Below are positions 12,071 to 57,999 of a stretch of DNA of 64,000 nt, one piece after another. Positions within the stretch are counted from its first letter, which is position 1; the number at the start of each line of letters is the position of its first letter. Both the position numbers and the translations under genes were made by a program. Location of the stretch: NCBI GenBank assembly GCA_022729235.1, contig JALDAJ010000001.1:704001-768000 (forward strand), given 5' to 3'. The notes under the pieces were generated by a model, which saw nothing but the letters and a program-made list of their open reading frames with translations, ran no database searches and had not been told where the DNA came from. Source of the DNA: Candidatus Nanohalarchaeota archaeon. GTDB taxonomy: Archaea; Nanohalarchaeota; Nanosalinia; Nanosalinales; Nanosalinaceae.

Positions 12071-12144
12071 TCCCGACCCCCCGATTTGAACGGGGGACAA
12101 GTCGCTCTACAGGCGACCGCTCTGCCAGACTGAGCTAGGTCGGG
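12071..12144 (-). tRNA. tRNA-Tyr (GTA), no intron
   Basis: CCCGACC/GGTCGGG acceptor with C1:G72, GTCGC-CTGTAGA-GCGAC anticodon arm, TTCAAAT T-loop. Confidence 0.96.
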
Positions 12145-12220
12145 AAATGGCTTTCAGGCGTGATCGACCGGTCAGACCAGAAACCTGTATGGTTTCGACC
12201 TGAGCTAGGTCGGGAAATGG
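12130..12220 (-). repeat. 21 bp direct repeat of tRNA-Tyr 5' end and leader with hairpin insert
   Basis: ctgagctaggtcgggaaatgg at 12130-12150 and 12200-12220. Confidence 0.9.
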
Positions 12221-12253
12221 TTTCCGACAATGTCAAGGTAGAAGGTCAAGTTT

Positions 12254-13615
12254 TTAAGTGTCGCGCGGGTTGAAGCCGACTTCGACCTCACTGCTCTCTT
12301 TTGGTTCTCTTTCCTCGGATTTCAGCTCTGCTTCTGGCAGTGTCACGTCACCTTCCACCTCGAACAGAGGGTTGATTGTGTACTCGAACACTCTCTGGTC
12401 GCCAGGTTCAAGTTCTTCTATATCCCAGGTGAGTCTTGTCCCGTTCGGGGTTTTCCGGATCACGGGGCGTGCCATGGCGAACTTGTCGTTTACAGAGGCG
12501 ATGTCAGGTACGAAGTCGGTGAGTTCTACGTTTTTCAGTGTCTCGTTTGACCTGTTCTCTACCTCTATATGGATTTTGACGCCGTCCTCTGTTTCTCGCC
12601 CTGTTTTCACTAGTTTCACAGGATTTCTTAACCTCTTCAGGAGAACCAGTCCTCCGAGCAGGGCTGCCAGGATTGTCAGCGGTATCCAGTACTGGATGGT
12701 GTAGCTTACCGAATCGCTGCTTCCAGGTTCAAGTTCGAGGTTCCATGTGTATACGTAAGAGTCTTCGTGTATCTCGGTCTGGTCAGGTTCCTGGTCAAAA
12801 CTTGTTATCGGTGATAGGTATCTTGGCAGGGTTTCCTGGAGTTCTACAGGATTCTCAGTGTTTCCCTGGTTTTCCGCTCCGATTGTTTTAAAGTAGAAAA
12901 GTATCCTATTGTCAACGTCGACGGTTCTTTCGATTTTCTCAAGTCGCTCTACTTCAACGCGGTGTCCTGTGACCTCCCCCTGTGTTTCTCCACGTTCGAT
13001 GTAGAATGTTACGTCTTGATCTCCTGGAGGGGTGTTTTCAGGTATTTCCAGGGAAAGAGTCATCATGACCTGTGAACTTGGATCCAGTGGTAGCCCGGAT
13101 TTATTGACCTGGTGGCCCCCTAACTCTGCTCTGATGGAGTAGTCTTCAACTGTTTCTCGTGCTGTGTTTGCTAATTCTATCGTGTACTCTGCTTCTTCAC
13201 CGGGTTCGTAGCTTGCCTTGTTGCTGGATAAACGGGTTATCGAAATATCGTATGGGCTTTTAACTGCGAACTGTGATTCCAGTTTTTGTGTCTGATCTCC
13301 TGCGTTTATGAAGACGTTGAACATGTAGTTCTGCTGCAGTATATCATCAGGAGGTGTCACCTGTATTTCGAGCGTCTTTGTTTCTCCAGGGTCCAGAAAA
13401 GTATTGGATTTTTCAACATTGAACCACTGTGAGTGAGGATTGACGCTTGTTGAGAAGAGTTCTCTCTCGCCGAGAGTGTTTTCGACTGTTAGCTCGAATT
13501 GACCGGGGTTATCGGTGCTTGCGGTCCTGTCAATGGTTTCTATCGAGGCGGAGAAGGCTGCTGCCGTTCCTGCCAGCAGGATCAAGAAGGCTGCTGTGAC
13601 GGCACTTTTACGCAT
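12254..13615 (-). CDS. Membrane-anchored surface protein with Ig-like (NEW3/COG1470-type) domains
   Basis: Signal peptide, repeated beta-sandwich motifs (V.N.G..L.PG), TM helix near residue 315. Confidence 0.7.
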   Translation of the reverse strand: MRKSAVTAAFLILLAGTAAAFSASIETIDRTASTDNPGQFELTVENTLGERELFSTSVNPHSQWFNVEKSNTFLDPGETKTLEIQVTPPDDILQQNYMFNVFINAGDQTQKLESQFAVKSPYDISITRLSSNKASYEPGEEAEYTIELANTARETVEDYSIRAELGGHQVNKSGLPLDPSSQVMMTLSLEIPENTPPGDQDVTFYIERGETQGEVTGHRVEVERLEKIERTVDVDNRILFYFKTIGAENQGNTENPVELQETLPRYLSPITSFDQEPDQTEIHEDSYVYTWNLELEPGSSDSVSYTIQYWIPLTILAALLGGLVLLKRLRNPVKLVKTGRETEDGVKIHIEVENRSNETLKNVELTDFVPDIASVNDKFAMARPVIRKTPNGTRLTWDIEELEPGDQRVFEYTINPLFEVEGDVTLPEAELKSEEREPKESSEVEVGFNPRDT

Positions 13616-13697
13616 GGTGTAGCTTTGTCCTCTGAATATTTAAAACCGCGATACCCATGGATAGACCTTTTTAAACAGCAGAGCACCGATTTCTTTT

Positions 13698-14759
13698 ATG
13701 GAGGAAGATGTTCTAGTACTCGGGGCAGGATTCGCAGGGATAAACACTTCTCTAAGACTTTCGAGAAAAGGATTCGAGGTTACTCTGGTGGATATGAATA
13801 GTTCCCACGAGTTCACGCCGGGTATAATAGACCTGTTCGGGGATAGGATTACAGAGAAAAGTCTAAGTCTTGATATGGAAGAGTTCCTGGACGGGACAGG
13901 CATACAGTTTGAGCAGGAGCTTGTCGAAGGTATAAACCCTGATAAAGAAGTTGTTCATACAGGTAGCGGGGATTATCACTATGATTATCTCGTAGTTGCG
14001 CTAGGTGGAGACGTAAAGACAAACGGCGTCGACATCTCGGAGGCGGTAACCGTATACAGTATTGAAGATGCAAAGAGGATACGTGAGCAGATCGGAGATG
14101 TGGACGAGGTTTTGGTGGTAGGGGCAGGCTACACAGGTATAGAAGCTGCCACAGAACTCCGGTTACAGGGTCTGGGTGTCACTGTTGTAGATAAGTCTAC
14201 TCGCCCTATGCCGTGCTCGACTGAGGAGGTCTCGCATACTGTCCTTGACTACATGAACGAGAAGGGGATAAAATTCAGGGGAGGTAAGAAAGTAGTTGAT
14301 GTCACGGAGAACGGGGTTGAGACAGAAGAAGATGAGATAAACGCGGATATGGTGGTCTGGGCAGGAGGCATCAGGTCCTCGAAAGTGGTGAGAGATTCAT
14401 TTGACACTGATAGCGGTCTGCCGGTGAATGCCGGGCTTTCATCAGAAGAGTACTCGAACGTCTTCGCCGCGGGAGACTGTGCTGATACGGATGCCCTGAA
14501 CACGGCGCAGAATGCCGAGAAACAGGGTAGGCTTATAGCCGAGAACATGCTGAAGAGAGAGGATGAAAGCCTGGAGGGTTATGAGCCTGGAAAGGAGCTT
14601 CTCGTGGTTTCTATGGGTGACACAGGGATGCTGGTACACGGCGATCGTGTTTTCAAGAACAGGTCTTTCCGGTTCCTGAAGAAGTTGATACGGAGGATGT
14701 ATTTCCTGAGACTGAGCTATGAGAAGATGAGAATCAGGGTTTCTCGCATCTTCGGATAG
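13698..14759 (+). CDS. NAD(P)/FAD-dependent oxidoreductase (NDH-2/SQR-like)
   Basis: GAGFAG, YDYLVVALG, GAGYTGIE, VFAAGD motifs. Confidence 0.88.
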   Translation: MEEDVLVLGAGFAGINTSLRLSRKGFEVTLVDMNSSHEFTPGIIDLFGDRITEKSLSLDMEEFLDGTGIQFEQELVEGINPDKEVVHTGSGDYHYDYLVVALGGDVKTNGVDISEAVTVYSIEDAKRIREQIGDVDEVLVVGAGYTGIEAATELRLQGLGVTVVDKSTRPMPCSTEEVSHTVLDYMNEKGIKFRGGKKVVDVTENGVETEEDEINADMVVWAGGIRSSKVVRDSFDTDSGLPVNAGLSSEEYSNVFAAGDCADTDALNTAQNAEKQGRLIAENMLKREDESLEGYEPGKELLVVSMGDTGMLVHGDRVFKNRSFRFLKKLIRRMYFLRLSYEKMRIRVSRIFG

Positions 14760-14887
14760 TTGTAATACATAATTCTGTATAAAGCGTTATTAGGCATTTT
14801 TGTAATGCGATGGTATTACAATTGCTGGTTTTTGGGCGGAGGATATAGGTTCTCAAATTAATAAGCGAGCTGTGAGATTTTGTGTTT

Positions 14888-15706
14888 ATGCAGATCGTAA
14901 ATGAGGAAGATGTTTCCGGCGAGAGGTGGCTGGGGTTTGAATGGTCTGACTGGTCTCTGCTCAAGCCACGCACAAAGAAGATTTCGCAGGTCCCTGAGAC
15001 ACCAGGTTTTTTCCGTATAAAGAAAGTAGGCGGTCGGGGACTGGATTATGTTGGACAGACTGGGCGAAATCTCAAGGAGCGTCTTATCCACCTTGCCAAC
15101 CAGGTGAATGCTGATAAGAGACCGGACGACTCGAAGTCGTCTGCGAAGCATCTATGGGAGTTAAAGGATTTTGGTGGTGGCAGGTTCGAGTTCTCTTATA
15201 TCAACCCGAATATCGCGCGTTCAGAGATTGATAGGCTGGGTCTGGAGAACGTTATGTTCGCGATGCATGTCCGGTACAGGGGTAAGAGTCCTACCGTAAA
15301 TCTTGACCGCAAACTGAATACGCGGGAGAGTGAGTCGGTCCTGGATAGGCTGGAATGGGGTATGGGGGAGATGACTTCCCGGGACTGGATGGGTCTGGAC
15401 TGGACGGAGCCCCGGAGGATGAAGGATCGGATGGAAATCGACTGCTCTCACGTAGTCTACCGCATCTGGTTCCCGGATTTTACACCGCCCCTGGCCTACA
15501 TCGGTAAGAGTACGAACGTCGCCAACCGCCTGATAAAACATGAGAAAAAGTTTGGTTCGAGCGCTCTCTTTTCAGTAGCTCCTATCAAATCCAATCTGAA
15601 GGATGTTGAGGCTTCACTGATAGCGAACCACTACATAACTACCAATACTTTGCCCAAGGGACAGGATGGTAGAAGAAACAAGTTCAGGTGGAGACACAAC
15701 AAATAA
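14888..15706 (+). CDS. Tandem GIY-YIG nuclease-domain protein
   Basis: PGFFRI..YVGQTGRNLKERL and VVYRI..YIGKSTNVANRL, each preceded by a W(L/M)GxxW(S/T) motif. Confidence 0.75.
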   Translation: MQIVNEEDVSGERWLGFEWSDWSLLKPRTKKISQVPETPGFFRIKKVGGRGLDYVGQTGRNLKERLIHLANQVNADKRPDDSKSSAKHLWELKDFGGGRFEFSYINPNIARSEIDRLGLENVMFAMHVRYRGKSPTVNLDRKLNTRESESVLDRLEWGMGEMTSRDWMGLDWTEPRRMKDRMEIDCSHVVYRIWFPDFTPPLAYIGKSTNVANRLIKHEKKFGSSALFSVAPIKSNLKDVEASLIANHYITTNTLPKGQDGRRNKFRWRHNK

Positions 15707-15879
15707 ACGCTTTATAATCGTCCATTTTGTGTTTGGAGATATTAAAATATTTTTATCCGGGTTTGATGACTTATCCTATATTTTATCCTTATTTTGACCT
15801 TATTATAGAGTTTTAAGCTCTCTAGGCGTTGTTTAAAAGACCCTAAGTTTAAATAACGAATTTTACGCGTTTCTATAAT

Positions 15880-16302
15880 ATGGTGAAACATGCGTCCAAG
15901 ACGACGATTCTAACGTTTCTCATAACCTCTTTGATTCTAATACCTTCTGTAAGCGCCCAGGAGGAAGATAGCGGTCCCGAGATAGAGATGGTGGAGCCCT
16001 GGCCCTCAGATGTAGGGCACAACGACTACCTGTACACTGATGCTCGTATAGAAAGTACAGGGGATGAAGTTGATGCCTGGTACGAAGTAAAAGATGAGGC
16101 TGGTAACTTAGAGGGAGAAAGAGAGATTGTGGACACAGTGGGTGACGGGTACTACGTCAGCCCCAGGGCGATACAGGTTGAAGGCGGTGAGACTTATGAT
16201 GTTGAAGTTACTGCCTGTGAAGCCGGTGGAGAGTGCAGCTCGAAACAGGTTACGGTCATGACGGAGTGCATGATAGACTTACTCGGGGACTGCATGTACT
16301 GA
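15880..16302 (+). CDS. Secreted protein (Ig-like)
   Basis: Signal peptide ending VSA; acidic, four Cys. Confidence 0.7.
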   Translation: MVKHASKTTILTFLITSLILIPSVSAQEEDSGPEIEMVEPWPSDVGHNDYLYTDARIESTGDEVDAWYEVKDEAGNLEGEREIVDTVGDGYYVSPRAIQVEGGETYDVEVTACEAGGECSSKQVTVMTECMIDLLGDCMY

Positions 16303-16386
16303 TACCCTCTATTTTTCTCTATTTTTATCTAAGATATTTCGCTGTGAAGCCAAGGCATATACAGCAGGATGTCAAGTAATCATATT

Positions 16387-16497
16387 ATGTCCGAGCTACT
16401 GCAGTTTTTACCCACTAGCAAAGGGGAAGGAGTCCTGTTCTTCGCATTTCTCTACCTGGTTTACATGGCAGGAAAGAAGATAAGAGACAGGTTCTAG
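16387..16497 (+). CDS. 36 aa single-TM microprotein (not in ORF track)
   Basis: MSELLQFLPTSKGEGVLFFAFLYLVYMAGKKIRDRF; hydrophobic core plus basic tail. Confidence 0.5.
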   Translation: MSELLQFLPTSKGEGVLFFAFLYLVYMAGKKIRDRF

Positions 16498-16508
16498 GAC
16501 CATGATTA

Positions 16509-17135
16509 TCAAGTCTCACGCTCCGGCTTCCCGTCTTCATCATCTTCTTCTCCAAAGCCCGCACTGAACGTCCTCTTCAGTATTTTCTCCCGCGGTTCAT
16601 CGGGTTCGAAGAACTTCTCGTCTTCCACCTCTATTACGTGACCTGACGCGACATTAGGCGAGGTCGGTAGGAAGAGGACTTCACGACCGTCCTCCGCGGT
16701 GTTGCCTGTCCTGTACGCGGTAAGTCTTGTACCATCAAAGTCCAGTTTCACAGGGTCTGTCAACCTGTCACTGCCGTGGAAGAGAGTGTCTGAAGCTGCT
16801 TTCGTGAGGCTGTAAACCCTGCCCAGCAACGGAACCCTGTCCATCGACCGGTCCAGCGCCTTCTCCGCCCTCAAACCCGGCGAGGTACCGGTCAGAAAGC
16901 CCGTTAAAGCCACCAGCAGAGCTCCCCCGAAAAGGAATACCGCGAGCTGTAAAGCTCTGTTAACAGGGTCGTACGCGGTGACTTCAAGGAGAGCCATCCC
17001 CGGTATCGCCTCTATACGCTGCACCAGCCAGAATATGACGTAGAGCGTTACCAGGATCGGCGCCAGAACGACAGCTCCGCGGGTAACGAAACGCCTGTCT
17101 AACCAGCCTCCGTTTCCAGAGTCGCCTTCAGCCAT
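16509..17135 (-). CDS. DUF502 membrane protein
   Basis: RVPLLGRVY and FLPTSPNVASG motifs. Confidence 0.85.
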   Translation of the reverse strand: MAEGDSGNGGWLDRRFVTRGAVVLAPILVTLYVIFWLVQRIEAIPGMALLEVTAYDPVNRALQLAVFLFGGALLVALTGFLTGTSPGLRAEKALDRSMDRVPLLGRVYSLTKAASDTLFHGSDRLTDPVKLDFDGTRLTAYRTGNTAEDGREVLFLPTSPNVASGHVIEVEDEKFFEPDEPREKILKRTFSAGFGEEDDEDGKPERET

Positions 17136-17239
17136 ATGTGCTTCTATAGCTGAAAAACAGTGAGTATTACGGTGGCGAAGCATAACTGTCCGTGACTATC
17201 AACCAAACTCTACTAAATGATTGCGGAGAAAACGGTGTT

Positions 17240-17329
17240 ATGGTAGAATTCGAGACACGCATATTCGAAAGGAATATGCTTCGATTGAATTCTATCGAAC
17301 AACGTGATAAAAATGGTAGAATTCGAGAC
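17240..17329 (+). repeat. 17 bp direct repeat of a gene start with hairpin insert
   Basis: atggtagaattcgagac at 17240-17256 and 17313-17329. Confidence 0.85.
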
Positions 17330-17588
17330 TATTGAGAAGGAAAGACAGGACTACGGAAACTTCCCTGGAGAAAAATTCATCGAGGTGTCCCGGAACAAAG
17401 CTATACAGGATGACGGCACTGAAAACTCGTTCATACAGATCTCCACCGGGTATTACGATGAGGTGGGAGACGCCGGGTACAAGAAAAGGTTCACCGTACC
17501 GACCGACGAAAAAGCAGTCGAACACATAGTGGAAAAACTACCGGAAATCTTCGAAAAAGAACAGGAAGCACGGGAAGAAGCAGAATAG
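17313..17588 (+). CDS. Conserved-looking hypothetical protein (possible PC4/Whirly-like fold)
   Basis: FIEVSR..FIQISTGYY..YKKRFTVP beta-beta-alpha pattern. Confidence 0.7.
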   Translation: MVEFETIEKERQDYGNFPGEKFIEVSRNKAIQDDGTENSFIQISTGYYDEVGDAGYKKRFTVPTDEKAVEHIVEKLPEIFEKEQEAREEAE

Positions 17589-17784
17589 GGCTTGAAGACA
17601 GGAAAAATAGGCTCATAAAGAGCCGGGATCAACAAGTCCCGGAACTCCTAGAAAGCTTCAGAGAAGCTTTCCTGAGCAGGGTCTCGGATACATCTCACAA
17701 ATGCATCGACGACCTTACCATAAACAACCGACTACAACCTTAAATAACAAGCCAGGGACTAGGTCCGTACACAGATAATAGGCT

Positions 17785-17952
17785 AGCCCCCGGTGGGATT
17801 TGAACCCACGGCTTATCCCTAGCTTGCTTCGCGCTTTTTATCCGGCATCCTGTTGGAAGCCGGACTCGAAACTCTGCGAGTTTCTGCGCCTCGCAACTTG
17901 TGAGTTGCTCGGTTACAAGGGGATCGCTCTAGCCAGACTGAGCCACGGAGGC
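17785..17952 (-). tRNA. tRNA-Thr (TGT) with 93 nt intron at 37/38 (17821-17913)
   Basis: GCCTCCG/CGGGGGC acceptor; ATCCC-CTTGTA|intron|A-GGGAT; BHB central helix CTTG/CAAG. Confidence 0.92.
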
Positions 17953-18186
17953 GTCGATGTCTGATAGAGAATCTGGTTCTGTTAACAGTTAAATACTTGG
18001 TTGGCTGCTATGTCTCATAGAATTATTGCTCAGTCTTCTCTTTCCTTTTCTACAAGGTCTTTTATCTTCATGAGGAGGTAGAAGATGAGGAGGTATCTCC
18101 AGTATTTCCTAAGTGTTCTCCTTACGCCCATGCCGGTTAAAGAACCGTCACAGTTTATCAGGACTGCTTCATTCCTGTGAAGAGAT

Positions 18187-18483
18187 TTATTCTGTCACGT
18201 CGCTTGGATCGGGCGCCCTGTTCTTGACCTCTTTCTTCGCTGCATCCTTGATTCTTTTGATATTGCTGCTTCTTTCGCATTCCGGGCATTCGATCCACCA
18301 TGGCCGAGAACCTAGTTCTTCGCTTCTTTCGAATTCGTGTCCGCAGAACGGGCAGGTCATCTGGTAGTGGAATGTCTCGTTGTCGTATGAGAACATCTTG
18401 ATCTGCCCTGTTTCCTCGCCGTCATCGTTTTCCAGTTTGCGGTTGGTAACGTACTCGGCTTTATCGTAGTCGATCTCTTTCAT
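18187..18483 (-). CDS. Zinc-ribbon protein
   Basis: CPFC..CPEC. Confidence 0.75.
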   Translation of the reverse strand: MKEIDYDKAEYVTNRKLENDDGEETGQIKMFSYDNETFHYQMTCPFCGHEFERSEELGSRPWWIECPECERSSNIKRIKDAAKKEVKNRAPDPSDVTE

Positions 18484-18528
18484 CTTTCTATCAATACCTT
18501 GACAACTGTAAGTTTTAAGTTTTTGATT

Positions 18529-19008
18529 TCAGCCCACCATTTTACGGTATACGGGTTCTACGTCTTCCTCATCCAGGTCTATCTCTGTCTTTTCAAGTCC
18601 TTCCGCATCAAACAGGGCTTTCCCTATCTCCAGAAAGTCTTTTGGTTCATCGAACTTGAGATGCTTGATGTCCGGGTTGTACCGTTTCAGATTCCTGTAA
18701 TCCCATTCTCGTTCCGTGTTCAGGATGCGCAGGTCGTACCCCATGACTGTTGCGAGAAACGCCCGAGCCGCGTCCTCCTTCGATTCAATCCGCGCGTAAG
18801 CCTGCTCGTCCACAGGGCTTCCGTTCAACCCCTCTCGTTCTTCTCCATTGACTTTGTAGATCTCCACCCCAGGAGTTCTGCCCAGGATTTCGGGGTCGTC
18901 TGTCTCCACCACGAGTTTTCCCGAGTCTTCCCGGATATCCTCGACTTTCTTTTCAAGGTTCTCTTTGAGTTTCTCGATTTTCTCTGTAGGCGTAACCTCG
19001 ATTTCCAT
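18529..19008 (-). CDS. Hypothetical protein, possibly a degenerate ThiI-like fold
   Basis: Acidic ORF; see findings. Confidence 0.7.
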   Translation of the reverse strand: MEIEVTPTEKIEKLKENLEKKVEDIREDSGKLVVETDDPEILGRTPGVEIYKVNGEEREGLNGSPVDEQAYARIESKEDAARAFLATVMGYDLRILNTEREWDYRNLKRYNPDIKHLKFDEPKDFLEIGKALFDAEGLEKTEIDLDEEDVEPVYRKMVG

Positions 19009-19062
19009 ATGATTTGTTACTTGCAAGGAAAGCTTTTATGTAACGGCTCTAAACGCGTTAAC

Positions 19063-19473
19063 ATGAAGCTGTTCGACAGGATATCCGAGGACGGGGAGGA
19101 GGTAGAAATTGAATCCTCTGCGGCGATAGAGGAAAGCAGTAGTTCACAGGAGGAAAGTCGTTTGAGGAGAGAGGTCGAGGACGAAGTCGTGGACGGGTCA
19201 GGTTCTACCGGTACAGGTTCTTCCAGCTCTTCAGACTCCAGTTTGCCGGGTGTGAGTTACGGTGATTCAGGTTCTTCAAGCAGTTCGTCTTCCCGTTCTA
19301 CTAAGTCTAGCTCCTCATCAACTTCCAGCTCGCTTCCAGGGATGTCGAGCGGAGGCTCAACTACGTCTTCCCACAGTATTGACCTGGAGGATGTACATGA
19401 ACAGAATAAGGAGATAATAGAACTACTTAAAGACATAAAGTCCGAGGTAGGTGGTAACGATAAGCTACTTTGA
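19063..19473 (+). CDS. Ser-rich low-complexity protein with C-terminal EQN helix
   Basis: ATG at 19063; LEDVHEQNKEIIELLKDI. Confidence 0.7.
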   Translation: MKLFDRISEDGEEVEIESSAAIEESSSSQEESRLRREVEDEVVDGSGSTGTGSSSSSDSSLPGVSYGDSGSSSSSSSRSTKSSSSSTSSSLPGMSSGGSTTSSHSIDLEDVHEQNKEIIELLKDIKSEVGGNDKLL

Positions 19474-20005
19474 TAACGTGAAGGATTCTGTGAAGGACAA
19501 GGATTCACGAGACAAGGCCAACTTCGAGACCCTGAGGAAGGCGGCTGAAGAATCATCGGAGAGCCCTGAAAACAAGGAAGGTGATGATACCGGTATAGAA
19601 GTCCTGGAGGAAGGGCTTTCCAAGGAAGCGCCTGGGAAAACGCAGAAGGAGAAAAAGCGGGAGCAGAGGAATCAGCAGGGTGATGGGGAGGAAGATGTCA
19701 ACGATTCCGGGAACCTGTTACCTTCCAGCTCAAGCGGTAGCTCTTCCACGGCTTCGAAAACAGGTAGTTCAGAAGCGGGTTCGATGTCCGGTTCCGGTGG
19801 TTCTTCCAGCTCAGGCATCGGTTCTTCAGGCAGTTCTCCTGGAGGTTCTGCAGTCGACCAGATGTCCGGTAACAAGCCGGGTAAAAGTTCTGGAACCAGC
19901 AATGACTCTTCTAGTGAGAACAGTTCCTCTCTAGAGGAGAAGCTTGACACCATCATCGAGCAGAACGAAAGGATGATAAGGATACTTGAGAGCTTCGGGA
20001 GCTAG
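19451..20005 (+). CDS. Ser/Gly-rich low-complexity protein with C-terminal EQN helix
   Basis: LDTIIEQNERMIRILES; overlaps the upstream gene. Confidence 0.7.
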   Translation: MVTISYFDNVKDSVKDKDSRDKANFETLRKAAEESSESPENKEGDDTGIEVLEEGLSKEAPGKTQKEKKREQRNQQGDGEEDVNDSGNLLPSSSSGSSSTASKTGSSEAGSMSGSGGSSSSGIGSSGSSPGGSAVDQMSGNKPGKSSGTSNDSSSENSSSLEEKLDTIIEQNERMIRILESFGS

Positions 20006-20015
20006 CCTAAGTTTT

Positions 20016-20291
20016 CTAGACTACCTTGACAGGTATCTTTCTGCGTCCTTCGTCGGTGCTCTCCATTTCTTCGAGTAAGCTGATTTCAAGTTCGAGCTGT
20101 TTCCGTGTGTTGGATTCGAAGAACTCCATCTCCAGCTGGTTGTCCTTGTTTGGTTCGATTTCGACTTCTTCTCTTCCTTTAAAGGAGAGTCCTACCTCGC
20201 CTTCTCTTATCTTTTCTGCAAAGTTTTCAAGGAAGTTAGCAAGTTCTTCATTGTTGAATTCGAAGTCGAGTTCTACTTCTTCGGTTGACAT
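20016..20291 (-). CDS. Amphi-Trp-like protein (terminal Trp absent)
   Basis: LANFLENFAEKI..LELEISL. Confidence 0.7.
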   Translation of the reverse strand: MSTEEVELDFEFNNEELANFLENFAEKIREGEVGLSFKGREEVEIEPNKDNQLEMEFFESNTRKQLELEISLLEEMESTDEGRRKIPVKVV

Positions 20292-20333
20292 ATATTGAAT
20301 CTTCTCGTGGGAACTGTTTTATTTTTTAAGGTC

Positions 20334-20612
20334 TTATTCTCCGTCTTCACCGGTTTTCTGTTCCAGCTTCCTTGCGAGGAAGTGGTCTTTCTCTTCGAGT
20401 TCTCTTATCGACTCGATTGCGAACAGGTAACCTGTACCTATCATCACCAGTCCGAGAACTGCGGGAGCCAGGTCAATCAGACCTACTAGCGGTAGTATGT
20501 TGGATATAACGAGTAGTACTCCCAGCGTGAACAGGGCGAAAGATACTGCTATCTCCTGGTTTATGCTCATCTTTTTGAGTCCGAATCGGTCTTTTTCTGT
20601 CATTCGAATCAC
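20334..20612 (-). CDS. Two-TM membrane protein in the oap operon
   Basis: Two hydrophobic helices, tightly spaced after oapC. Confidence 0.7.
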   Translation of the reverse strand: MIRMTEKDRFGLKKMSINQEIAVSFALFTLGVLLVISNILPLVGLIDLAPAVLGLVMIGTGYLFAIESIRELEEKDHFLARKLEQKTGEDGE

Positions 20613-20620
20613 CGAGAGCG

Positions 20621-21004
20621 TTATTCTAGCTCCTCTAGGTCGAGATTAGCATCTTCCGGGTTGAATGCGGAAGGTAGCTGTATGTAGTAGTTTCCTTCTT
20701 CCCTCCTTATAACTAATGGTATTTCTTTGAGTAGGCGGGAGATGTTTATCTGGTATACGCCTTCTTCCTTGATGCTTATCGAGTCAAGGTCGAACTCGAA
20801 CTTGATATTGGCTCTTTCTTCTACTCCTTCCTTCGCCATCTCCCTGATTTCGGAAGTGACCTCTTCTTTTTCTTCCTGCGACATCTCTTCTGTCTCCCCA
20901 TCTTTCTCGTACATAAAGAGCGAGGAGCCGCAGTCGCAGCCGCTTATCAGTTCATCGCTCCCGTCATCATACATCTCTCCGCAGTTCATACATCTATGGG
21001 GCAT
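20621..21004 (-). CDS. oapC: Zn-ribbon protein OapC (DUF2072)
   Basis: MPHRCMNCG..GCDCGSSLFMY; GVYQINI. Confidence 0.85.
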   Translation of the reverse strand: MPHRCMNCGEMYDDGSDELISGCDCGSSLFMYEKDGETEEMSQEEKEEVTSEIREMAKEGVEERANIKFEFDLDSISIKEEGVYQINISRLLKEIPLVIRREEGNYYIQLPSAFNPEDANLDLEELE

Positions 21005-21008
21005 GATT

Positions 21009-21392
21009 TCACTCCTCCATCTTTGCCAGGAATGAAACGGTATCTGGTTCTTCCTTGATTTTTTCCATGACGCGGGAGTTGCCTACTATCGTTAATCCCT
21101 GTCGGTACTGCTCGTTGAGAACTCTCTTGTAGAGGATGCTTTTTGCCTTTTCAATCCTGGAATCGCCTCCATCGAACCCCATGAATTCCACGCCCGGGAA
21201 ATCCTCGTCTGCCTTTTCTACAGAGTTCTCGATAAGTTTTCGTTTTTCTTCCGGAGTCCATCCTTCTTCGAGTACCAGCACGGAGTTGTCTTTAACCTTC
21301 TCAAGAACAAATTCCAGCTTGTCTGTGAAGGCTTTCTCGTCTGAAAGCCTCTCCTTCGAGAGAAATTCTATTGTGACCCCGTCATCTGTCAT
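21009..21392 (-). CDS. oapB: OapB (DUF2073)
   Basis: VLEEGWTPEE..L, FPGVE, GLTIVG motifs. Confidence 0.85.
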   Translation of the reverse strand: MTDDGVTIEFLSKERLSDEKAFTDKLEFVLEKVKDNSVLVLEEGWTPEEKRKLIENSVEKADEDFPGVEFMGFDGGDSRIEKAKSILYKRVLNEQYRQGLTIVGNSRVMEKIKEEPDTVSFLAKMEE

Positions 21393-22019
21393 CTAACTCA
21401 ACCTTTCGACTATTTCCTCATAAAGTTTGTCAATATTATTGCCTTCTTTCGCAGATATCTCTATTACAGGGTGCTGCGGGAAAGCATCGCGCACTCTTTG
21501 TGCATCTGCTTCTTCGAGGTCTATCTTGTTCGCTACCACCAGTATAGGTATGTCCTTTGCCTCCAGGTTACCGATAATTGTGACGTTAACCTGGGTGTAC
21601 GGATCCTCTGTAGCATCAAAAATCACCAGGCACGCGTCCACGTTGTCAAGGTACTTTATCGCCTCAACGATTCCTTTCGTTGCCTCTTTGGCGCGACCCT
21701 TCGCATCGTCCTCCTCTATACCGTGTTCAGTGAAATCCTTGAAGTCTACATTCGTTGAAATACCAGGCATGTCAAGCAGGTTCATCTCCACCGATTGACC
21801 ATCTGCCTCTATCTCGACTTTTTCTTTTTTCTCTACGATACGGGTCTCGTGAGGTACCTCGGAAACATTACTCATCTCTTCCCCGGTTATATCAAGAGAT
21901 ATCTGGTTCGCGAGAGTAGACTTTCCGGCGTTAGGAGGGCCATATATGCCTATAGAGAGGTCATCTTTTTCCGAATCACTGAAGAGACTGTTGAGAAGTT
22001 CCCTGAGCCTTTTGATCAT
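21393..22019 (-). CDS. oapA: Era-like GTP-binding protein OapA
   Basis: IGIYGPPNAGKSTLAN, PHETR, DMPG, NKID, ISA. Confidence 0.9.
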   Translation of the reverse strand: MIKRLRELLNSLFSDSEKDDLSIGIYGPPNAGKSTLANQISLDITGEEMSNVSEVPHETRIVEKKEKVEIEADGQSVEMNLLDMPGISTNVDFKDFTEHGIEEDDAKGRAKEATKGIVEAIKYLDNVDACLVIFDATEDPYTQVNVTIIGNLEAKDIPILVVANKIDLEEADAQRVRDAFPQHPVIEISAKEGNNIDKLYEEIVERLS

Positions 22020-22118
22020 TTTGACACCAGCTAATGGTAAATCAGGTCTTTAAGTATAAAAACTATTTCCTCTCTTTCACCCGGGAATAATAAAGAAATG
22101 ACACCTAAAAATGGCAAC

Positions 22119-22556
22119 ATGAAGACTGAAAAAGGCGTGATAATTGTCGCGTACAAGCGGAAGAACGCTCCCCGCTACGTTGTCCTTAAGAGGAAGAAGA
22201 ACTGGGAAGGCTGGGAAACTCCTAAAGGACACCTGGAGGATGAGGGCTACGAGGAAACGGTTAAGGAGGAGATGCAGGAGGAGGCAGGCATCTCTGGGGA
22301 CGAGATACTCGCTATAGAGGATATGGAGGAGACAGTCTTGTGGGAGTACAGTCAGGATGGTGAAGATTTCCGGAAAGAGTACCGTGCATTTCTAGTAGAA
22401 GTAGATGAGGGCGCACATGTTGATGTGTCGAGAAATCCCTGCGATGAGCACGAACACGGCTACTTCTTCAGTTTCCGTGACGCCAGCGAGATGGTGACTC
22501 ATGATAACAACCGCGAGCTACTGGAGAAGGCTCATGAGATGGTAACTGGAGAGTGA
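22119..22556 (+). CDS. NUDIX hydrolase
   Basis: WETPKGHLE..EEMQEEAG. Confidence 0.8.
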   Translation: MKTEKGVIIVAYKRKNAPRYVVLKRKKNWEGWETPKGHLEDEGYEETVKEEMQEEAGISGDEILAIEDMEETVLWEYSQDGEDFRKEYRAFLVEVDEGAHVDVSRNPCDEHEHGYFFSFRDASEMVTHDNNRELLEKAHEMVTGE

Positions 22557-22594
22557 GCTGAACCGATTTAAACATGGCGTGTATTCTAACAGGT

Positions 22595-22846
22595 ATGACA
22601 CAGCCAGACGAGATGCTGGAAATTTACCAGTTTGAAGGATGTCCTTACTGCTCAAAAGTCAGACAGAAGATGACCGAACTAGGTCTCGACTTCATCGCGA
22701 AGAGTGTTGATCCTCACGGTGACAGGCAGCGTGTAAAAGAGGTCAGTGATCAGACAGGTGTCCCTGTCCTCGTAGACCCGAACACCGATACAGTCATGCC
22801 AGAGAGCGACGACATCGTGGAGTATCTGGAAAAACAGTACGAATAA
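22595..22846 (+). CDS. Glutaredoxin/GST N-terminal domain protein
   Basis: CPYC, VPVLVD, ESDDIVEYL. Confidence 0.88.
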   Translation: MTQPDEMLEIYQFEGCPYCSKVRQKMTELGLDFIAKSVDPHGDRQRVKEVSDQTGVPVLVDPNTDTVMPESDDIVEYLEKQYE

Positions 22847-22877
22847 CTTTTAATTTCTTATTCCGCAGTAGCAACGT

Positions 22878-23324
22878 ATGCCTGATAGTAGACTCTTGAA
22901 AGAACTCGATATCTCTCCGGCTGAACTGGCTGAGATGACAGAAAGCGAATATCGGAACACTCTTCTTAGACATGATTATCCTTTAACCGAGCCTGTAATA
23001 GTATCTGTTGAGGACTCTATAGCAAGGGAAAGAGAGAAGCTTGAAAGTTTTTGTGCGCCGTATTCAGGTGCGGAAAAATGGCTTTGGATAGGTGAAGAGA
23101 TACTTCCTCGCTGGGCAGAAGTTCTCTCCGAACTCGATGAAAGAGTAAATTACGCGGATTCAAGTGGACTAGAGACAGAATACAAAGGAGTATTGTCCCC
23201 GCGGCTCAAGAAGGCTACAGGACTGATGAAGCGTCTGGAGGCAAATCCGGTAGACTATGATATATCGGAGTTTGTGGATAGACTCCGTGGAATGGAAAAC
23301 ACATATGAAAGGAAATTAAAGTAG
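22878..23324 (+). CDS. Hypothetical protein
   Basis: 148 aa ORF, ATG start, acidic. Confidence 0.6.
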   Translation: MPDSRLLKELDISPAELAEMTESEYRNTLLRHDYPLTEPVIVSVEDSIAREREKLESFCAPYSGAEKWLWIGEEILPRWAEVLSELDERVNYADSSGLETEYKGVLSPRLKKATGLMKRLEANPVDYDISEFVDRLRGMENTYERKLK

Positions 23325-23351
23325 TTCTGTCTCTACTGAAGGACTTGGAAA

Positions 23352-23487
23352 TGGACCGGCCCAGATTTGAACTGGGGATCTCCACCTGTCTGAATTCCTC
23401 CGCATAGCGGAGATTTCAGATAATAGAAGCTGGTTAAGGCTTCGAGTCTATCAGGGTGGTGCTATAACCAAGCTAAGCCACCGGTCC
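23352..23487 (-). tRNA. tRNA-Ile (GAT) with 61 nt intron at 37/38 (23388-23448)
   Basis: GGACCGG/CCGGTCC acceptor; CCACC-CTGATA|intron|A-GGTGG; BHB helix CTGA/TCAG. Confidence 0.92.
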
Positions 23488-23582
23488 GTGCTAGCTAGTA
23501 ATAGTTGAATGCTTGGAAAGTATTTTTAATGCATTGGCAGAGAGTCCGTGATTTTTATTTGAGGATTTAAAATACTGTTTCT

Positions 23583-24053
23583 GTGGGACTTGAAGAATTA
23601 GAAGAAGATATCAGGCAACTTGAGCAGGATCTTGAAAGTCTTGTTCCCCAGAAGAAGGCAGCTTCGGCTAAACTGTTTCTAGATCAGTTCATGCCTCTCG
23701 CTATACTGATGCTAACTTTGATGATTGCCTTCCATATTTTCATCCCAGTAAGCGATAGCATGGCTGTCGCTGTCAGCTACATGAACGTGGCTATCCTGTT
23801 CTTCTTCAGCGCCCGGTTCACGCTTGCTTTCATGCTGGCGGATTCGCATAAAGGATTCCTCCGTGAACACTGGTTTGACGCGCTGCTTGTTCTACCAGCT
23901 TTTGCATTAGTCAAGGATATACGTCTGCTGCTTGCCCTAGAGTCCAGGACAGAGGAACGCGCTGTTATAGGCACTATTTTCGCGAGGAATACGACGGTTG
24001 CCAGCCAGTTAACCAAGATAATTACCTGGATCAGAAGAATTCTCAGGTTCTAA
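23583..24053 (+). CDS. Membrane protein resembling an ion-channel S1-S4 module
   Basis: Several TM helices; FLREHWFDALLVLP S3-like motif. Confidence 0.6.
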   Translation: MGLEELEEDIRQLEQDLESLVPQKKAASAKLFLDQFMPLAILMLTLMIAFHIFIPVSDSMAVAVSYMNVAILFFFSARFTLAFMLADSHKGFLREHWFDALLVLPAFALVKDIRLLLALESRTEERAVIGTIFARNTTVASQLTKIITWIRRILRF

Positions 24054-24064
24054 AAACATATCTC

Positions 24065-24234
24065 TGATATGGGTCCAACGGGATTTGAGACGAAAACAAG
24101 TTTTCTTAGTCAAATCACGTTTAACCAGCACGAAGTGATGGGCCCAACGGGATTTGAATTCGAAGAAGCAAGTTCTTCTGCAATCAAATCCCGGGAGAAA
24201 GCATATCTTTGATATGGGCCCAACGGGATTTGAA
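24065..24234. repeat. Tandem array of tRNA-Lys 3'-end copies (two extra units) with hairpin inserts
   Basis: tgat(at)ggg(t/c)ccaacgggatttga at about 24065, 24136 and 24210. Confidence 0.9.
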
Positions 24235-24349
24235 CCCGCGACGCCCGGCTTTCTTTGAAGCTTGGCTGACGCCTTGCTTCTAGGTCCTCGTCCCTTGCGG
24301 GACTTGAGGCTTAAAAGGCCGGTGCTCTGCCAGACTGAGCTATGGGCCC
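24215..24349 (-). tRNA. tRNA-Lys (TTT) with 61 nt intron at 37/38 (24251-24311)
   Basis: GGGCCCA/TGGGCCC acceptor; CCGGC-CTTTTA|intron|A-GCCGG; BHB helix CTTT/AAAG. Confidence 0.92.
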
Positions 24350-24402
24350 ATGCGTATGGGTAATTGTTGTAGAATACCTGAGGTTTTTATACTGTCCGCC
24401 GA

Positions 24403-53097: not shown

Positions 53098-53104
53098 TAT
53101 TCTT

Positions 53105-54848: not shown

Positions 54849-54988
54849 TAGACTATATTGGGTATATCTACGTTTTATTATCTGTGACAGTGAACATGTT
54901 GTCACCGAAGAGTCAGGCAACCTTTGGAAAGATATTTAAATGTGGGGGGTAAACTTGTAGGATATTGCAGGGGGAGGGACAAGTTTCT

Positions 54989-56110
54989 ATGTCCAAAAAT
55001 GATACTATGTCAGAACAGGAGCACGTACCGCGTCGCGATTTCGACTCATACCAGGTTCCCGAAGACTGGGAAACTGAAGAAGATGAAGACGAAAACCTAG
55101 AGGAAGAAGCAGCACCAGAGGCTGAAGAGTCTGGAGAAGAGAAAACTGTCGCTGAAGGCGAAGGATATACTGTAGTCCAGGAAGAAGCCGAAGAAGGCGA
55201 CATGGTTCTAACATGTCCCGAATGTGAATCACAGAGATTCGAGGAAGATTCCGCAGAAGGACAGCTTGTCTGTGTAGATTGTGGGGTAGTTGTCGATGAG
55301 AACCGGATCGATGAATCCGCAGAGTGGAGGGCGTTCAACGAGGAAGAGCGTGAGAAGAAGGCTCGCGCCGGACAGCCTCTTACATACACGAAACACGACA
55401 TGGGAGTATCGACCGAGATCGGTAAAGGTTCTGGAGAGCTTTACAAGGTTTCTGGTAATAAAAGAGCCCAGTACTACAGGCTGAGGAAATGGCACAAGCG
55501 CCTGACAAAGTCCAAGGACCGCAACCTCGGGTTCGCTCTATCCGAACTCAACTCGATGGTGTCCAACCTCAACCTTCCCGAATCAGTCCACGAAGAAGTC
55601 GCCCGACTATACGAGAAAGCGGTCGACAAGGGACTGGTGAGAGGACGTTCCATGGAGTCCATCATCTCCGCGCTACTCTACATCGTCGCGAGAAAACAGG
55701 GGACTCCAAGGACTCTTGACGAGATCTCCGAGGCTTCAGGCATCGAGAAGAGAGAGATCGGTAGAGCATACCGTTACGTTGCGCGTGAACTCGGACTCAG
55801 AATCCTACCGGCGAAGCCGCAGGACTACGTACCGCGTTTCGCTGGAAAACTCCAGCTATCAGGAGAAGTCCAGGCAAGAGCGCGTCAAATTCTCAAGGAA
55901 GCAAGAGAAAAAGACCTTCTGTCCGGTAAAGGACCGACAGGTCTCGCAGCCGCCGCGCTCTACATCGCCGCAGTACTCGAAGGCGAGAAGAGAACGCAGA
56001 GAGAAGTAGCAGACGTAGTCGGAGTCACCGAGGTCACGATCAGGAACCGCTACAAAGAACTTGCGGAGAAACTCGGCCTCGAAGAAGAGCTGGAAGAGAA
56101 GTCGAATTGA
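54989..56110 (+). CDS. tfb: Transcription initiation factor B with acidic N-terminal extension
   Basis: CPEC..CVDCG ribbon, EWRAF, two cyclin repeats, VTEVTIRNRYKEL; alternative start 55007. Confidence 0.97.
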   Translation: MSKNDTMSEQEHVPRRDFDSYQVPEDWETEEDEDENLEEEAAPEAEESGEEKTVAEGEGYTVVQEEAEEGDMVLTCPECESQRFEEDSAEGQLVCVDCGVVVDENRIDESAEWRAFNEEEREKKARAGQPLTYTKHDMGVSTEIGKGSGELYKVSGNKRAQYYRLRKWHKRLTKSKDRNLGFALSELNSMVSNLNLPESVHEEVARLYEKAVDKGLVRGRSMESIISALLYIVARKQGTPRTLDEISEASGIEKREIGRAYRYVARELGLRILPAKPQDYVPRFAGKLQLSGEVQARARQILKEAREKDLLSGKGPTGLAAAALYIAAVLEGEKRTQREVADVVGVTEVTIRNRYKELAEKLGLEEELEEKSN

Positions 56111-56449
56111 TCGGCTTTTCATATTTCCTTCTATTTATTTTTCTTCTACCTTCAGATTTTGACGTCAAGCAAGTTTTTTGACCGGTGATTAAAGCCGGTA
56201 AACGGTTACAGTTTAGCGACTTAGATTGGCAGGCGTAATCAGGAAGTCTGGCGTTCGTGAAGAAGACGTAAACGCTGGAGCAGAGTTCTATGAAAGACTC
56301 GTGAAAGGGTACAGGAGCTGTTTGCAGAGATGTAGAAAGAGCTGAAGGCAACGGACGAAAGACAGCGATGTTTATGTCTTAAACGTCTCTCGCTTTGACT
56401 GGCAGTTTTCCCAATTTATTTCTTTTCTTTTTCTATTCTCTCAAGAGTC

Positions 56450-57619
56450 CTATGTCAATTGCGATAGGCGCCATAATTGAGCTAAAATGATTAAAATACT
56501 TGATATGATGAATAATGCCTTTAAAGACTTGATGACAAAGTTTTTCGACCTTATAATTTTATCCTCGGAGCTTGGTAGTTCTATCTTGTATTTTGGATAG
56601 ACTTCTTCCGATCCAGAAAGTTTGAAGTTGTAAGATGGATTCACTTTTTCTCCGTTAACGATTATGGCTGAATTCTGTAATTTGTATATTTTTGGCCATT
56701 TTTGGGCTCTATTGATATAGCTTATTCTATCTTTTGTCTTATCACTTATTCTAAAGTCCTCATCTAAGCAGTCTAAGGCCTCTATCAGTGCGGTTTCTTC
56801 TATTCTACACAAATGACTCTCTTCATCAAGCTCAATTATTAATTTTTTAGGCTTTTCTTCAGAAAGGTCGCTAGCTTTGTTGGGATATACTCTGTCAGGA
56901 TAAAGATGTTCATGTCCTCTGAAGTAGGGTGCGGAGTCTTCGTACCCACAGTTTTCGCAGGTAAAATCCCATCCTTTTGTGATTATTTCGTTGCTGTTGC
57001 ATACTGGACAGGTGTATTCTTCATCAGGATTGTCTTCAGGGTTGTACAGATTCTCATAATCAATCTCCTGCGAGGGTTTTTTATCAAACATTTTAAAATC
57101 GTGTTTGTGGTAAAAGTATGCGGGTAAATACGAGTAACCCTGATATGGTGATCTCAATTCCTCCAGATTATCAGATGAGAAAAGATGCGGTCTCTTTATT
57201 TCCTCATCTTTACTCCAGAAAAATAGATTAGAACGTTCTTCGTCCACTTTATCAAGTCCTGTTTCCGTTATATTGTACAGTCTGGCGCTTACAGATTCGT
57301 CGCTCCGGCTTACTTCTAAAAGTCTAGAAGCGGCATCTGCGAGTATTGAGAAGTCTTTAGGATTTTTCTGAGGGCAGGGCATCTTTTCTACATATTTATT
57401 TCCAATGAATACTCTGTTGTCGCCGATAAACTCGCCTACAAGCTTATCTTTATCTACTTCTATATCGTCCTCTTGGACATCAAAAAGTTTAGCTACTCTT
57501 TCCAGACGTTTATCTTCTTTTTCTTGGTTTTCATCTCTTAAAATGATAATTTCTTTGTTTATTTGTTTCAGGGCAGCTTCTGGATTTTCTGATTCGATAA
57601 GGTAATACTCTATTGCCAC
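56450..57619 (-). CDS. Hypothetical protein with Zn ribbon and C-terminal TM helix (islet cargo)
   Basis: CPVC-x11-CENC; hydrophobic C-terminus; AT-rich codons. Confidence 0.75.
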   Translation of the reverse strand: MAIEYYLIESENPEAALKQINKEIIILRDENQEKEDKRLERVAKLFDVQEDDIEVDKDKLVGEFIGDNRVFIGNKYVEKMPCPQKNPKDFSILADAASRLLEVSRSDESVSARLYNITETGLDKVDEERSNLFFWSKDEEIKRPHLFSSDNLEELRSPYQGYSYLPAYFYHKHDFKMFDKKPSQEIDYENLYNPEDNPDEEYTCPVCNSNEIITKGWDFTCENCGYEDSAPYFRGHEHLYPDRVYPNKASDLSEEKPKKLIIELDEESHLCRIEETALIEALDCLDEDFRISDKTKDRISYINRAQKWPKIYKLQNSAIIVNGEKVNPSYNFKLSGSEEVYPKYKIELPSSEDKIIRSKNFVIKSLKALFIISSILIILAQLWRLSQLT

Positions 57620-57675
57620 AATAGCAATTTGAAGGTGCTTAAATGTTAAATTTATTCAGCGTTTATAGCTGAGGA

Positions 57676-57756
57676 GAGGTCACAATCAGGAACCGCTACA
57701 AAGAACTTGCGGAGAAACTCGGCCTCGAAGAAGAGCTGGAAGAGAAATCCAACTAA
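57676..57756 (+). repeat. Duplicated tfb 3' end (att-like)
   Basis: Encodes EVTIRNRYKELAEKLGLEEELEEKSN*, identical in protein to the tfb end. Confidence 0.93.
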
Positions 57757-57999
57757 CGCGTGGTTACGCTCGAGCGGGACGCAAGAAGCCATTCAACTGA
57801 ATGGCTTTCGCCGCTAACGCGGCGCACTTATTTCTCTATTTTTATATTGTTTATCTGAGAATGTCTCTAGATTTCGGTTCAAAGCTCGAGTCCTGCCGAT
57901 TTTATGTTTCCACATTTCTAAGGAGTTTGGGAGATGCCAAAGAAGTGCGAATTATTCTTTACCAGAGCGTAATAAAATTTTATTTTTAGATTTGACTCT

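Follow-up and report, generated by a model that had tools for sequence, protein, structure and literature searches.

Background

Direct repeats of the 5' or 3' termini of tRNA genes are, in the passages of PMC3293823 that describe them, the classic footprint of archaeal integrative elements. Here we describe small hairpin cassettes at gene ends in a member of the Nanohaloarchaeota, in a stretch of 64,000 nt from Candidatus Nanohalarchaeota archaeon (hereafter the window; positions 704,001 to 768,000 of contig JALDAJ010000001.1, assembly GCA_022729235.1). With the archaeal integrative elements that use SSV-type and pNOB8-type tyrosine recombinases the cassettes share a copy of the tRNA end beyond the insert, a reconstituted gene and tandem arrays, as well as 3' repeats that begin in or before the T loop (excerpts of PMC3293823). 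They differ in that the inserts are 30–110 nt long and contain no open reading frame (ORF), in that the ends of coding genes are duplicated too, and in the presence of an inverted copy and a conserved hairpin; the repeats are also shorter than the 44 bp quoted for SSV1. Element genes were not found in the inserts, and the arrays at tRNA-Pro carry toxin-antitoxin genes and no recombinase.

A second comparison is with insertion accompanied by long and variable target duplication (Nobusato et al. 2000, as cited in Furuta et al. 2010, PMC2853133). Going by the relevant sections of the latter paper, the known cases are bacterial, with kilobase-sized cargo and repeats longer than 30 bp, and no archaeal case survived screening. 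Common to those cases and to the cassettes are the lack of a transposase or integrase and the variable long repeats, often overlapping the 3' end of a gene (PMC2853133, same sections). The cargo there consists of restriction-modification genes (PMC2853133, in part), whereas here toxin-antitoxin genes are found at tRNA-Pro, most inserts hold only hairpins, most repeats are 8–36 nt and an inverted copy is present. Set against a length above 30 bp, the repeats measure 77–81 nt at tfb and at least 41 nt at tRNA-Pro, and 5–36 nt in the hairpin-only units. The units thus differ from both of the closest published phenomena in their hairpin-only cargo, their inverted copy and their sequence kinship with tRNA introns. 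Our literature search found no publication describing gene-end hairpin cassettes in Nanohaloarchaeota.

Other small repeated elements offer partial likenesses. As in the REP/REPIN-RAYT system, many short imperfect palindromes with conserved flanking bases lie in transcribed intergenic DNA, including operon junctions (parts of PMC3116915, PMC3733652 and PMC12306157). Unlike in that system, no RAYT or Y1 gene was found, the GTAG/CGTC tag (described in a section of PMC3733652) is replaced by flanks of CA or GA before and GA after the stem, duplicated gene ends accompany the hairpins, and tRNA introns hold hairpins as well. Prokaryotic miniature inverted-repeat transposable elements are likewise small structured non-coding elements that occur in multiple copies between direct repeats; the cassettes differ from them in having no common terminal inverted repeats and a duplication of 5–36 nt that is not of fixed length, and no partner insertion sequence was found. 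The likeness to an integron attC-like site would be limited to the bulged long hairpin that bounds the cassettes.

The bulge-helix-bulge (BHB) introns of archaeal tRNAs, and their proposed transposition, are reportedly covered in a review (PMC4090602). How such introns arrive remains open, according to portions of a recent preprint (10.64898/2026.10.13.758758). The hairpins and a 25-nt block are common to the cassettes and to bona fide introns of the same genome, but the cassettes lie outside the mature tRNA. Manual checks of the units at tRNA-Lys, the tRNA of the 16S-23S internal transcribed spacer (ITS), tfb and rpoB found no BHB motif joining the two copies, and bona fide introns (Arg-gcg, ITS tRNA) do show one. 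BHB boundaries were judged by hand, the automated script (3+2 flanking pairs) being non-discriminating, with dozens of matches per locus.

Results

One layout at unrelated gene ends

The window lies within the single contig (1,027,595 bp, or 1.03 Mb; here C1) of the source genome (G000). Positions without a prefix refer to the window. Five units at four loci share a layout which, read outward from the gene, consists of the gene end (inner copy), a spacer, an inverted partial copy, a small hairpin and an outer copy of the gene end. The outer copy, hairpin and inverted copy fold as a single long stem-loop, with RNA fold z-scores of -1.67 for tRNA-Tyr, -4.82 for the start of a 91-aa ORF, -2.44 and -2.63 for tRNA-Lys and -2.60 for tfb. 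We read the units as small hairpin cassettes inserted at gene ends with long, variable target duplication, a reading on which we are evenly divided and whose mechanism is conditional throughout.

At the tRNA-Tyr(GTA) gene (12069–12145, minus strand; ARAGORN; Rfam tRNA at 12071–12144, 58 bits) the repeat CTGAGCTAGGTCGGGAAATGG occurs at 12130 and 12200 as 21 exact nucleotides spaced by 70. The inner copy (12130–12150, minus strand) comprises the first 15–16 nt of the tRNA and 5–6 nt of leader. Next come the inverted partial copy (12165–12175, cgaccggtcag on the plus strand), which pairs with the outer copy, and the hairpin CA-GAAACC-tgtat-GGTTTC-GA (12178–12198), whose consensus flanks read on the plus strand, antisense to the tRNA. 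The outer copy (12200–12220, minus strand) has a TATA-like TTAAAAA box upstream. On the other side of the gene is a decayed 3' cassette (11995–12068, minus strand) in which alignment makes the inverted copy and hairpin recognisable; its outer copy is lost and it has no stable fold (z +1.92). It is intact in G001, a genome of the same genus.

The second locus is the start of a 91-aa ORF without a Pfam family (17313–17588, plus strand), whose first 17 nt (ATGGTAGAATTCGAGAC, inner copy 17313–17329) are repeated exactly at 17240–17256, a spacing of 73. Between the copies, on the same strand, lie the hairpin GCATATTC-gaaag-GAATATGC (17259–17279) and the inverted partial copy (17285–17296), which forms 12 bp with 17242–17253. 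The outer copy opens a 31-codon upstream ORF (17240–17335) in another frame, whose stop overlaps the start region of the real ORF. Since the outer copy is preceded by a TATA-like box, a formerly leaderless mRNA may have been turned into a leadered one here.

The 3' end of the intron-containing tRNA-Lys(TTT) gene (24215–24349, minus strand; Rfam, ARAGORN) is present in three copies at 24070–24088, 24139–24158 and 24215–24234, the last being the inner copy, with spacings of 69 and 76. Both cassettes are on the minus strand. The first (24139–24214) consists of spacer 24196–24214, inverted copy 24184–24195, hairpin 24162–24178 and outer copy 24139–24158; the second (24058–24138) of spacer 24119–24138, inverted copy 24110–24118, hairpin 24092–24105 and outer copy 24070–24088, its tail being a small hairpin, CATATCagaGATATG (24058–24072), and then a T5 run.

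The fifth unit is a 61-nt unit on the stop codon of a displaced copy of the tfb 3' end. This cassette (57753–57821, plus strand) comprises CTAACGCG at 57753–57760, an intron-like block TGGTTACGCTCGAGCGGGACGCAAG at 57761–57785, a GAA..TTC-type hairpin at about 57785–57809 and CTAACGCG again at 57814–57821. It is the weakest of the five, with a repeat of 8 nt and a spacing of 61; in its extended stem GCGG beside the repeat is paired with CCGC, and the repeat itself takes no part in this pairing. The initial annotation of the window, made from the sequence alone, had described five units of one layout at four loci: the repeat positions hold, while the fifth unit is weak for the reasons just given. 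Its C-GAA..TTC-T hairpin is indeed found in four of the five; the 91-aa-ORF unit has CATATTC..GAATATG instead.

Gene-end copies are in excess across the genome

The tRNA set consisted of the 35 ARAGORN calls in G000, from which several tRNAs are probably missing. Each flank of 200 nt was searched for a tRNA-specific 12-mer of its own gene with at most 2 mismatches, and 1190 pairs of tRNA and foreign flank served as the control. The 3' 12-mer combined the 3' strands of the T stem and acceptor with the discriminator, and the 5' 12-mer was the first 12 nt. A tRNA's own 3' 12-mer lay downstream in 10 of 35 cases against 13 of the 1190 foreign pairs, and its own 5' 12-mer upstream in 6 of 35 against 14 of 1190. 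Altogether 15 of the 35 tRNAs have a copy of their own end 40–130 nt outside the gene, where about 0.4 would be expected per end; among these, the Thr-ggt 5' match (2 mismatches) is doubtful.

The inverted copy was probed with an 11-mer, the reverse complement of T loop, T stem and 2 acceptor bases. It was found downstream of 9 of 35 tRNAs against 43 of 1190 pairs; most 3' copies have an inverted partial copy, and the outer copy is adjoined by a GAA..TTC hairpin. In Glu, Leu-taa, Phe and the spacer tRNA this reaches 1–2 nt past the self-complementary T stem, and is therefore a genuine inverted copy. Nine of the exact direct repeats of at least 15 nt spaced by 20–300 nt genome-wide are tRNA ends. 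Units stand in tandem at Lys and Pro-ggg, and two 5' units do so in the related genome G008.

Two further tRNA loci deserve mention. At C1:822713–822900 the Gly(gcc) 3' end stands behind tRNA-Gly(tcc) with 0 mismatches in 12 nt, and the second unit there has a hybrid end. The gene at C1:259729–259878, called Cys-GCA by ARAGORN and followed by a two-hairpin 3' cassette, has a G3:U70 pair, the loop TTTGCA and a position between 16S and 23S, which point to a tRNA-Ala(UGC) with a 73-nt canonical intron.

A hairpin family shared with tRNA introns

Perfect GAA..TTC hairpins number 168 in G000 and about 40 in one shuffled genome. When GA is required after the stem, 123 rows remain (nested, about 70 sites) against 3–12 in 5 shuffles. 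Copies are thus in excess over foreign flanks and hairpins over shuffled sequence, the latter a control that the initial annotation had proposed. Strict hairpins were defined as perfect GAA..TTC hairpins preceded by CA or GA and followed by GA; there are 42, with CA in 24 and GA in 18. Twelve of these 42 have at least 9 nt of their right flank repeated in the upstream 170 nt; the mirrored control yields 2 of 42. In 9 of the 12 the copy begins 0–3 nt past the hairpin foot. The consensus flanks therefore face away from the gene at either end, being sense at 3' ends and antisense at 5' ends (Tyr, Ser-tga, Leu-gag). This agrees with the view of the initial annotation that a single architecture recurs, now with a fixed polarity to the gene end.

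Hairpins of the family are found within seven tRNA introns (Met, Ser-gga, Arg-tct, Arg-gcg, Thr-cgt, Thr-tgt and Arg-tcg). The hairpin CA-GAAACTC-gca-GAGTTTC-GA in the tRNA-Thr(TGT) intron (17866–17886, minus strand; tRNA 17785–17952) is near-identical to that of the Gly-gcc cassette, and 21 nt of the Arg-gcg intron hairpin recur without change in the copy at site 236481 before a coding gene. The motif GGTTACGCTCG-N6-ACGCAAG has three genomic copies: one in the tRNA-Thr-ggt intron, one in the intron of the tRNA between 16S and 23S, and one in the tfb-copy insert. This insert has a 25-nt block in common with the two introns. A single design, CCTCAAGTTCTC..GAGAACGAGGAC and then a GAA..TTC hairpin, recurs in at least eight tRNA introns, among them that of tRNA-Lys (within 24215–24349), and two others have GGTTACGCTCG..ACGCAAGGACCACACTTCGGTGG in common; these intron families therefore span unrelated tRNAs.

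Further hairpins of the family lie in the leader of 16S, behind 23S and at the 3' terminus of a candidate RNase P RNA (C1:267694–268099), which matches the full Rfam archaeal model over 406 nt at 50 bits (gathering score 84). The two-hairpin element at the 3' end of this candidate recurs after the 23S rRNA (263.3 kb). In the ribosomal-protein operons and before rpoB, family hairpins precede the start codons of L14, L11, L1, RpoB and S19 (C1 positions 217406, 487883, 487334, 605427 and 583058). TTCGA directly abuts the GTG start of the first four, and is 1 nt from the ATG start of S19 and 12 nt from the start of L24. Several of the 3' arms contain a GGTGAT-like Shine-Dalgarno sequence, and the ribosome-binding region would therefore sit in the stem.

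No Rfam family was matched beyond tRNAs and 5S. Readings of the hairpin as a C/D box, K-turn, promoter or mini-tRNA were dropped by eye, as the motifs of their consensus sequences were missing. Two hairpin patterns gave 2 unrelated matches and 0 matches, respectively, in viral contigs. A 15-nt spacer motif searched against genome contigs gave, among the matches listed, only unrelated bacterial and archaeal records.

Distribution and covariation among relatives

The Lys-type cassette, with its hairpin part covered, is present in 10 of the 69 other genomes of the phylum sampled, in three of five families. Among the 12 genomes compared for tRNA-Lys, tRNA-Lys(TTT) has two units in G000, a degenerate one in G001, one in G007 and none in six others; tRNA-Lys(CTT) of G012 has two. 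The spacer TCACTTCGTGCTGGTTAA is common to G000, G007 and G012, and G007 and G012 each have their own tRNA end. Within the genus, G001 has own-end copies at 11 of 26 tRNAs, a set other than that of G000: Ala-ggc, Met, Cys 5' and Leu-gag 3' are found only in G001, and Gly-gcc, Tyr 5' and Lys-ttt only in G000.

Of the 17 genomes with usable flanks at tRNA-Tyr, 8 have an intact 5' cassette (G008 has two units), 2 have a degenerate one and 6 have none; an intact 3' cassette is found in 7, and in 2, G000 among them, the 3' cassette has decayed. Although the ends of the tRNA vary from genus to genus, the outer copies follow them: the outer copy equals the species' own tRNA-Tyr in 7 of 9 5' units and in 5 of 7 3' units, and each of the others has a single difference. 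The inverted copy covaries at a C/T position of the D-stem region and at the acceptor. The covarying pairs are GAGCTAG with CTAGCTC; GAGCTAA, GCTAAGCC and CTAAG with TTAGCTC; and GGTCG versus GGCG. In G012 the 3' inverted copy retains the ancestral T stem while the outer copy has changed.

Filled and empty sites were found among relatives, as a check suggested by the initial annotation had anticipated, at two loci. The L14-L24 junction is empty in 6 genomes and holds 2–4 hairpins in 4, and the filled junctions are flanked by stop/start-junction repeats of 5–11 nt (GTGGTGTAAAA, GTAAATG, TAATG). The 91-aa-ORF cassette is present in G000 and in G007, where its outer copy is degenerate, and there is none in G015.

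Larger inserts bounded by duplicated gene ends

Duplicated gene ends also bound inserts of kilobase size. The 3' end of the tfb gene proper (TFIIB repeat, Zn ribbon) is at 56030–56110 on the plus strand, with the stop codon at 56108–56110, and its last 77–81 nt are repeated 1.65 kb downstream, at 57676–57756 on the same strand, beyond a 1.6-kb insert. Of the 77 aligned nucleotides 74 are identical, and the 5 differences through the stop are all synonymous; the copy therefore diverged while still coding, and it looks like a displaced gene end. Between end and copy lies a 389-aa ORF of no clear family (56450–57619, minus strand), with a weak TFIIB-type Zn-ribbon match (E 0.004). ORFs beyond those checked against Pfam are crude longest-ORF calls.

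At C1:156500–159700 the tRNA-Pro(tgg) 3' end is present three times. The copies bound a 0.9-kb interval with a HEPN/nucleotidyltransferase (HEPN/MNT) pair and a 2.2-kb interval with an RHH/ParE pair and two ORFs of unknown function; past the last copy there is a PIN-domain ORF. In the middle copy, which matches over 41 nt at 98%, the T loop holds two hairpins of opposite orientation. Partial tRNA copies lie 0.86 and 3.1 kb from the gene at tRNA-Pro, and 0.37 kb from it at tRNA-Tyr in G001. These larger inserts, and the integrative-element footprint that tRNA-terminus repeats represent in the passages of PMC3293823 cited above, make the statement in the initial annotation that the units do not look like att sites too strong.

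Candidate enzymes

The profile search of G000, which is complete on a single contig, gave 0 matches to Y1_Tnp (PF01797), against control matches in 6 of 14 genomes; other HUH families were not searched. There was no match to the reverse transcriptase profile RVT_1 and none to Cas1 (PF01867), the enzyme of casposon- and CRISPR-type integration, and TnpB gave only a sub-threshold match. A splicing endonuclease was found. Two tyrosine recombinases exceeded the PF00589 cut-off (ORFs at C1:862694–863212 and 841035–841625; open frames of 472 and 377 aa). One of them lies about 0.7 kb downstream of tRNA-Thr-ggt; a search within 100 kb of this recombinase for an att repeat of the tRNA found none.

Discussion

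How might such units have come about? They share a hairpin family and point to a process that copies local gene ends, as the initial annotation supposed. We infer that insertion, and not slow local evolution, created them, that the duplication arises at insertion and that host recombination or repair enzymes act. The cassette would be a very small non-coding unit of one to four stem-loops, mostly of the form GAA-N-loop-N'-TTC and then GA, from a family probably widespread among the sampled Nanohaloarchaeota genomes. Its targets would be the termini of heavily used genes: tRNAs, the flanks of rRNA and RNase P RNA, ribosomal-protein operon junctions and some coding genes. Insertion would duplicate 5–36 nt of target, so that the gene keeps a complete end and a spare copy lies on the far side of the insert. 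Only insertions no more than one duplication length from a gene end, or in introns and spacers, would survive, and the cassettes would therefore be seen at gene ends. The spare copy at the hairpin foot could then pair with an inverted partial copy to form the long stem-loop, and the pairing would be maintained by selection or repeated conversion, probably because the spare end is thereby hidden.

A wider form of this proposal, which we put forward tentatively and consider doubtful, is that the cassettes are footprints of the spread of hairpin units, tRNA-intron units included, through recombination or repair with few dedicated enzymes, aimed at highly transcribed gene termini. The same unit might become a spliced intron where a BHB can form, and a gene-end cassette where the duplicated target rescues the gene.

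Several observations weigh against insertion with target duplication. The model alone does not explain a locus-specific inverted copy. Two cassettes carry the end of another tRNA (the Gly-gcc end at Gly-tcc, a Ser-tga-like end at Ser-gga). A flanking duplication accompanies only 12 of the 42 strict hairpins, and flank-flank pairing across all 42 is not general (z < -2 in 5 of 42 against 12 of 200 random controls), so the inverted copy belongs to the duplicated units and not to the hairpin family. The tRNA-Tyr and 91-aa-ORF cassettes are orthologous across genera with their pairing kept by compensatory changes, which fits selected structure as well as it fits old insertion, and the hairpin foot at the GTG start of four genes points to some role in expression. 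The genomes compared yielded no clean recent insertion. The tRNA flanks of G000 and G001 are too diverged to define an empty site. In the weak alignment of the Tyr leader with G001 the spacer may be original flank, and the inserted block may consist of outer copy, hairpin and inverted copy. The contigs aligned to the loci revealed no variant alleles, and no polymorphism was seen.

A serious rival to insertion with target duplication holds that selection maintains the units as RNA or DNA structures: stem-loops in leaders, in trailers and between cistrons that would serve processing, 3'-end protection, termination or translation start of highly expressed genes, with the spare copy and its inverted partner kept since they must match the gene end. 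We regard it as improbable. In its favour, orthologous cassettes persist across genera, their outer copies track the own tRNA, the inverted copy covaries through compensatory changes, and a T-run comes after the cassette in most 3' cassettes. The placement of hairpins in the 16S leader, at the 3' flanks of 23S and RNase P RNA, at operon junctions and, with TTCGA and Shine-Dalgarno-like 3' arms, at the GTG starts of L14, L11, L1 and RpoB is likewise what such structures would give. A selected structure is harder to reconcile with conserved flanks that are sense at 3' ends but antisense at 5' ends, with T5–T6 runs that lie between tRNA and cassette at Gly-gcc and Leu-taa, and with the ancestral T stem retained in the G012 inverted copy after the outer copy had changed. 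The units are patchy even inside a genus, decayed copies exist, and no Rfam family other than tRNA and 5S was matched. The initial annotation had named selected antisense folds as its alternative. Their persistence across genera with compensatory changes stands in its favour; the flip in flank orientation, the decay and the differing tRNA sets within one genus do not.

Could the cassettes instead be the worn-down scars of integrative elements, att duplications made by tyrosine recombinases whose cargo was deleted until only attL, remnants of the arms and attR were left? The 3' copies that start in the T loop, the tandem arrays, the partial tRNA copies 0.37, 0.86 and 3.1 kb away and the tfb-end copy, which with its synonymous-only differences resembles a displaced gene end, would all be at home in this explanation, and G000 has two tyrosine recombinases, one of them close to tRNA-Thr-ggt. 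We nevertheless think it unlikely. The interiors are uniformly 30–110 nt, with spacers and hairpins conserved across tRNAs and families, which random deletion would not give. The same layout is found at coding starts, stops and operon junctions with repeats of 5–17 nt. Neither an att repeat of tRNA-Thr-ggt within 100 kb nor a match in viral contigs was found.

We consider very unlikely the mechanism that the initial annotation suggested, in which the hairpin foot is nicked by an HUH enzyme of the REP/RAYT or IS200/IS605 kind and local sequence is then copied through template switching. Abundant short palindromes with conserved asymmetric flanks and some inverted pairs (158763/158774, 626229/626239) would suit it, and the direct-inverted-direct layout is a possible product of strand switching at hairpins. 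The enzyme itself did not appear: as reported above, the search of G000 gave no match to Y1_Tnp (other HUH families were not searched), RVT_1 or Cas1 and none to TnpB above the cut-off. The linkers on either side of the hairpin are not mirror images, and simple fold-back copying therefore does not fit. Finally, chance or an assembly artefact is extremely unlikely, since although the genome is metagenome-derived and the three runs found for it are soda-lake DNA contigs of a single study, the enrichment over controls is 15- to 25-fold, a Logan contig of 51,428 nt from a second assembler (probably of the same sample) has 0 differences over the 12.4 kb from 12000 to 24400, and independently assembled relatives have the same architecture.

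Conclusions

The source genome offers about twenty dated examples of one process. They link tRNA-intron hairpins to inserts outside tRNAs that have target duplications, and the same end duplication is found around toxin-antitoxin cargo. Spare gene ends and intron-like hairpins of this kind can mislead the annotation of tRNAs, att sites and small ORFs in reduced archaeal genomes. If the spread of hairpin units proved true, it would show concretely, for the first time, by what route archaeal tRNA introns arrive, a question that becomes testable through close strains and RNA end mapping.

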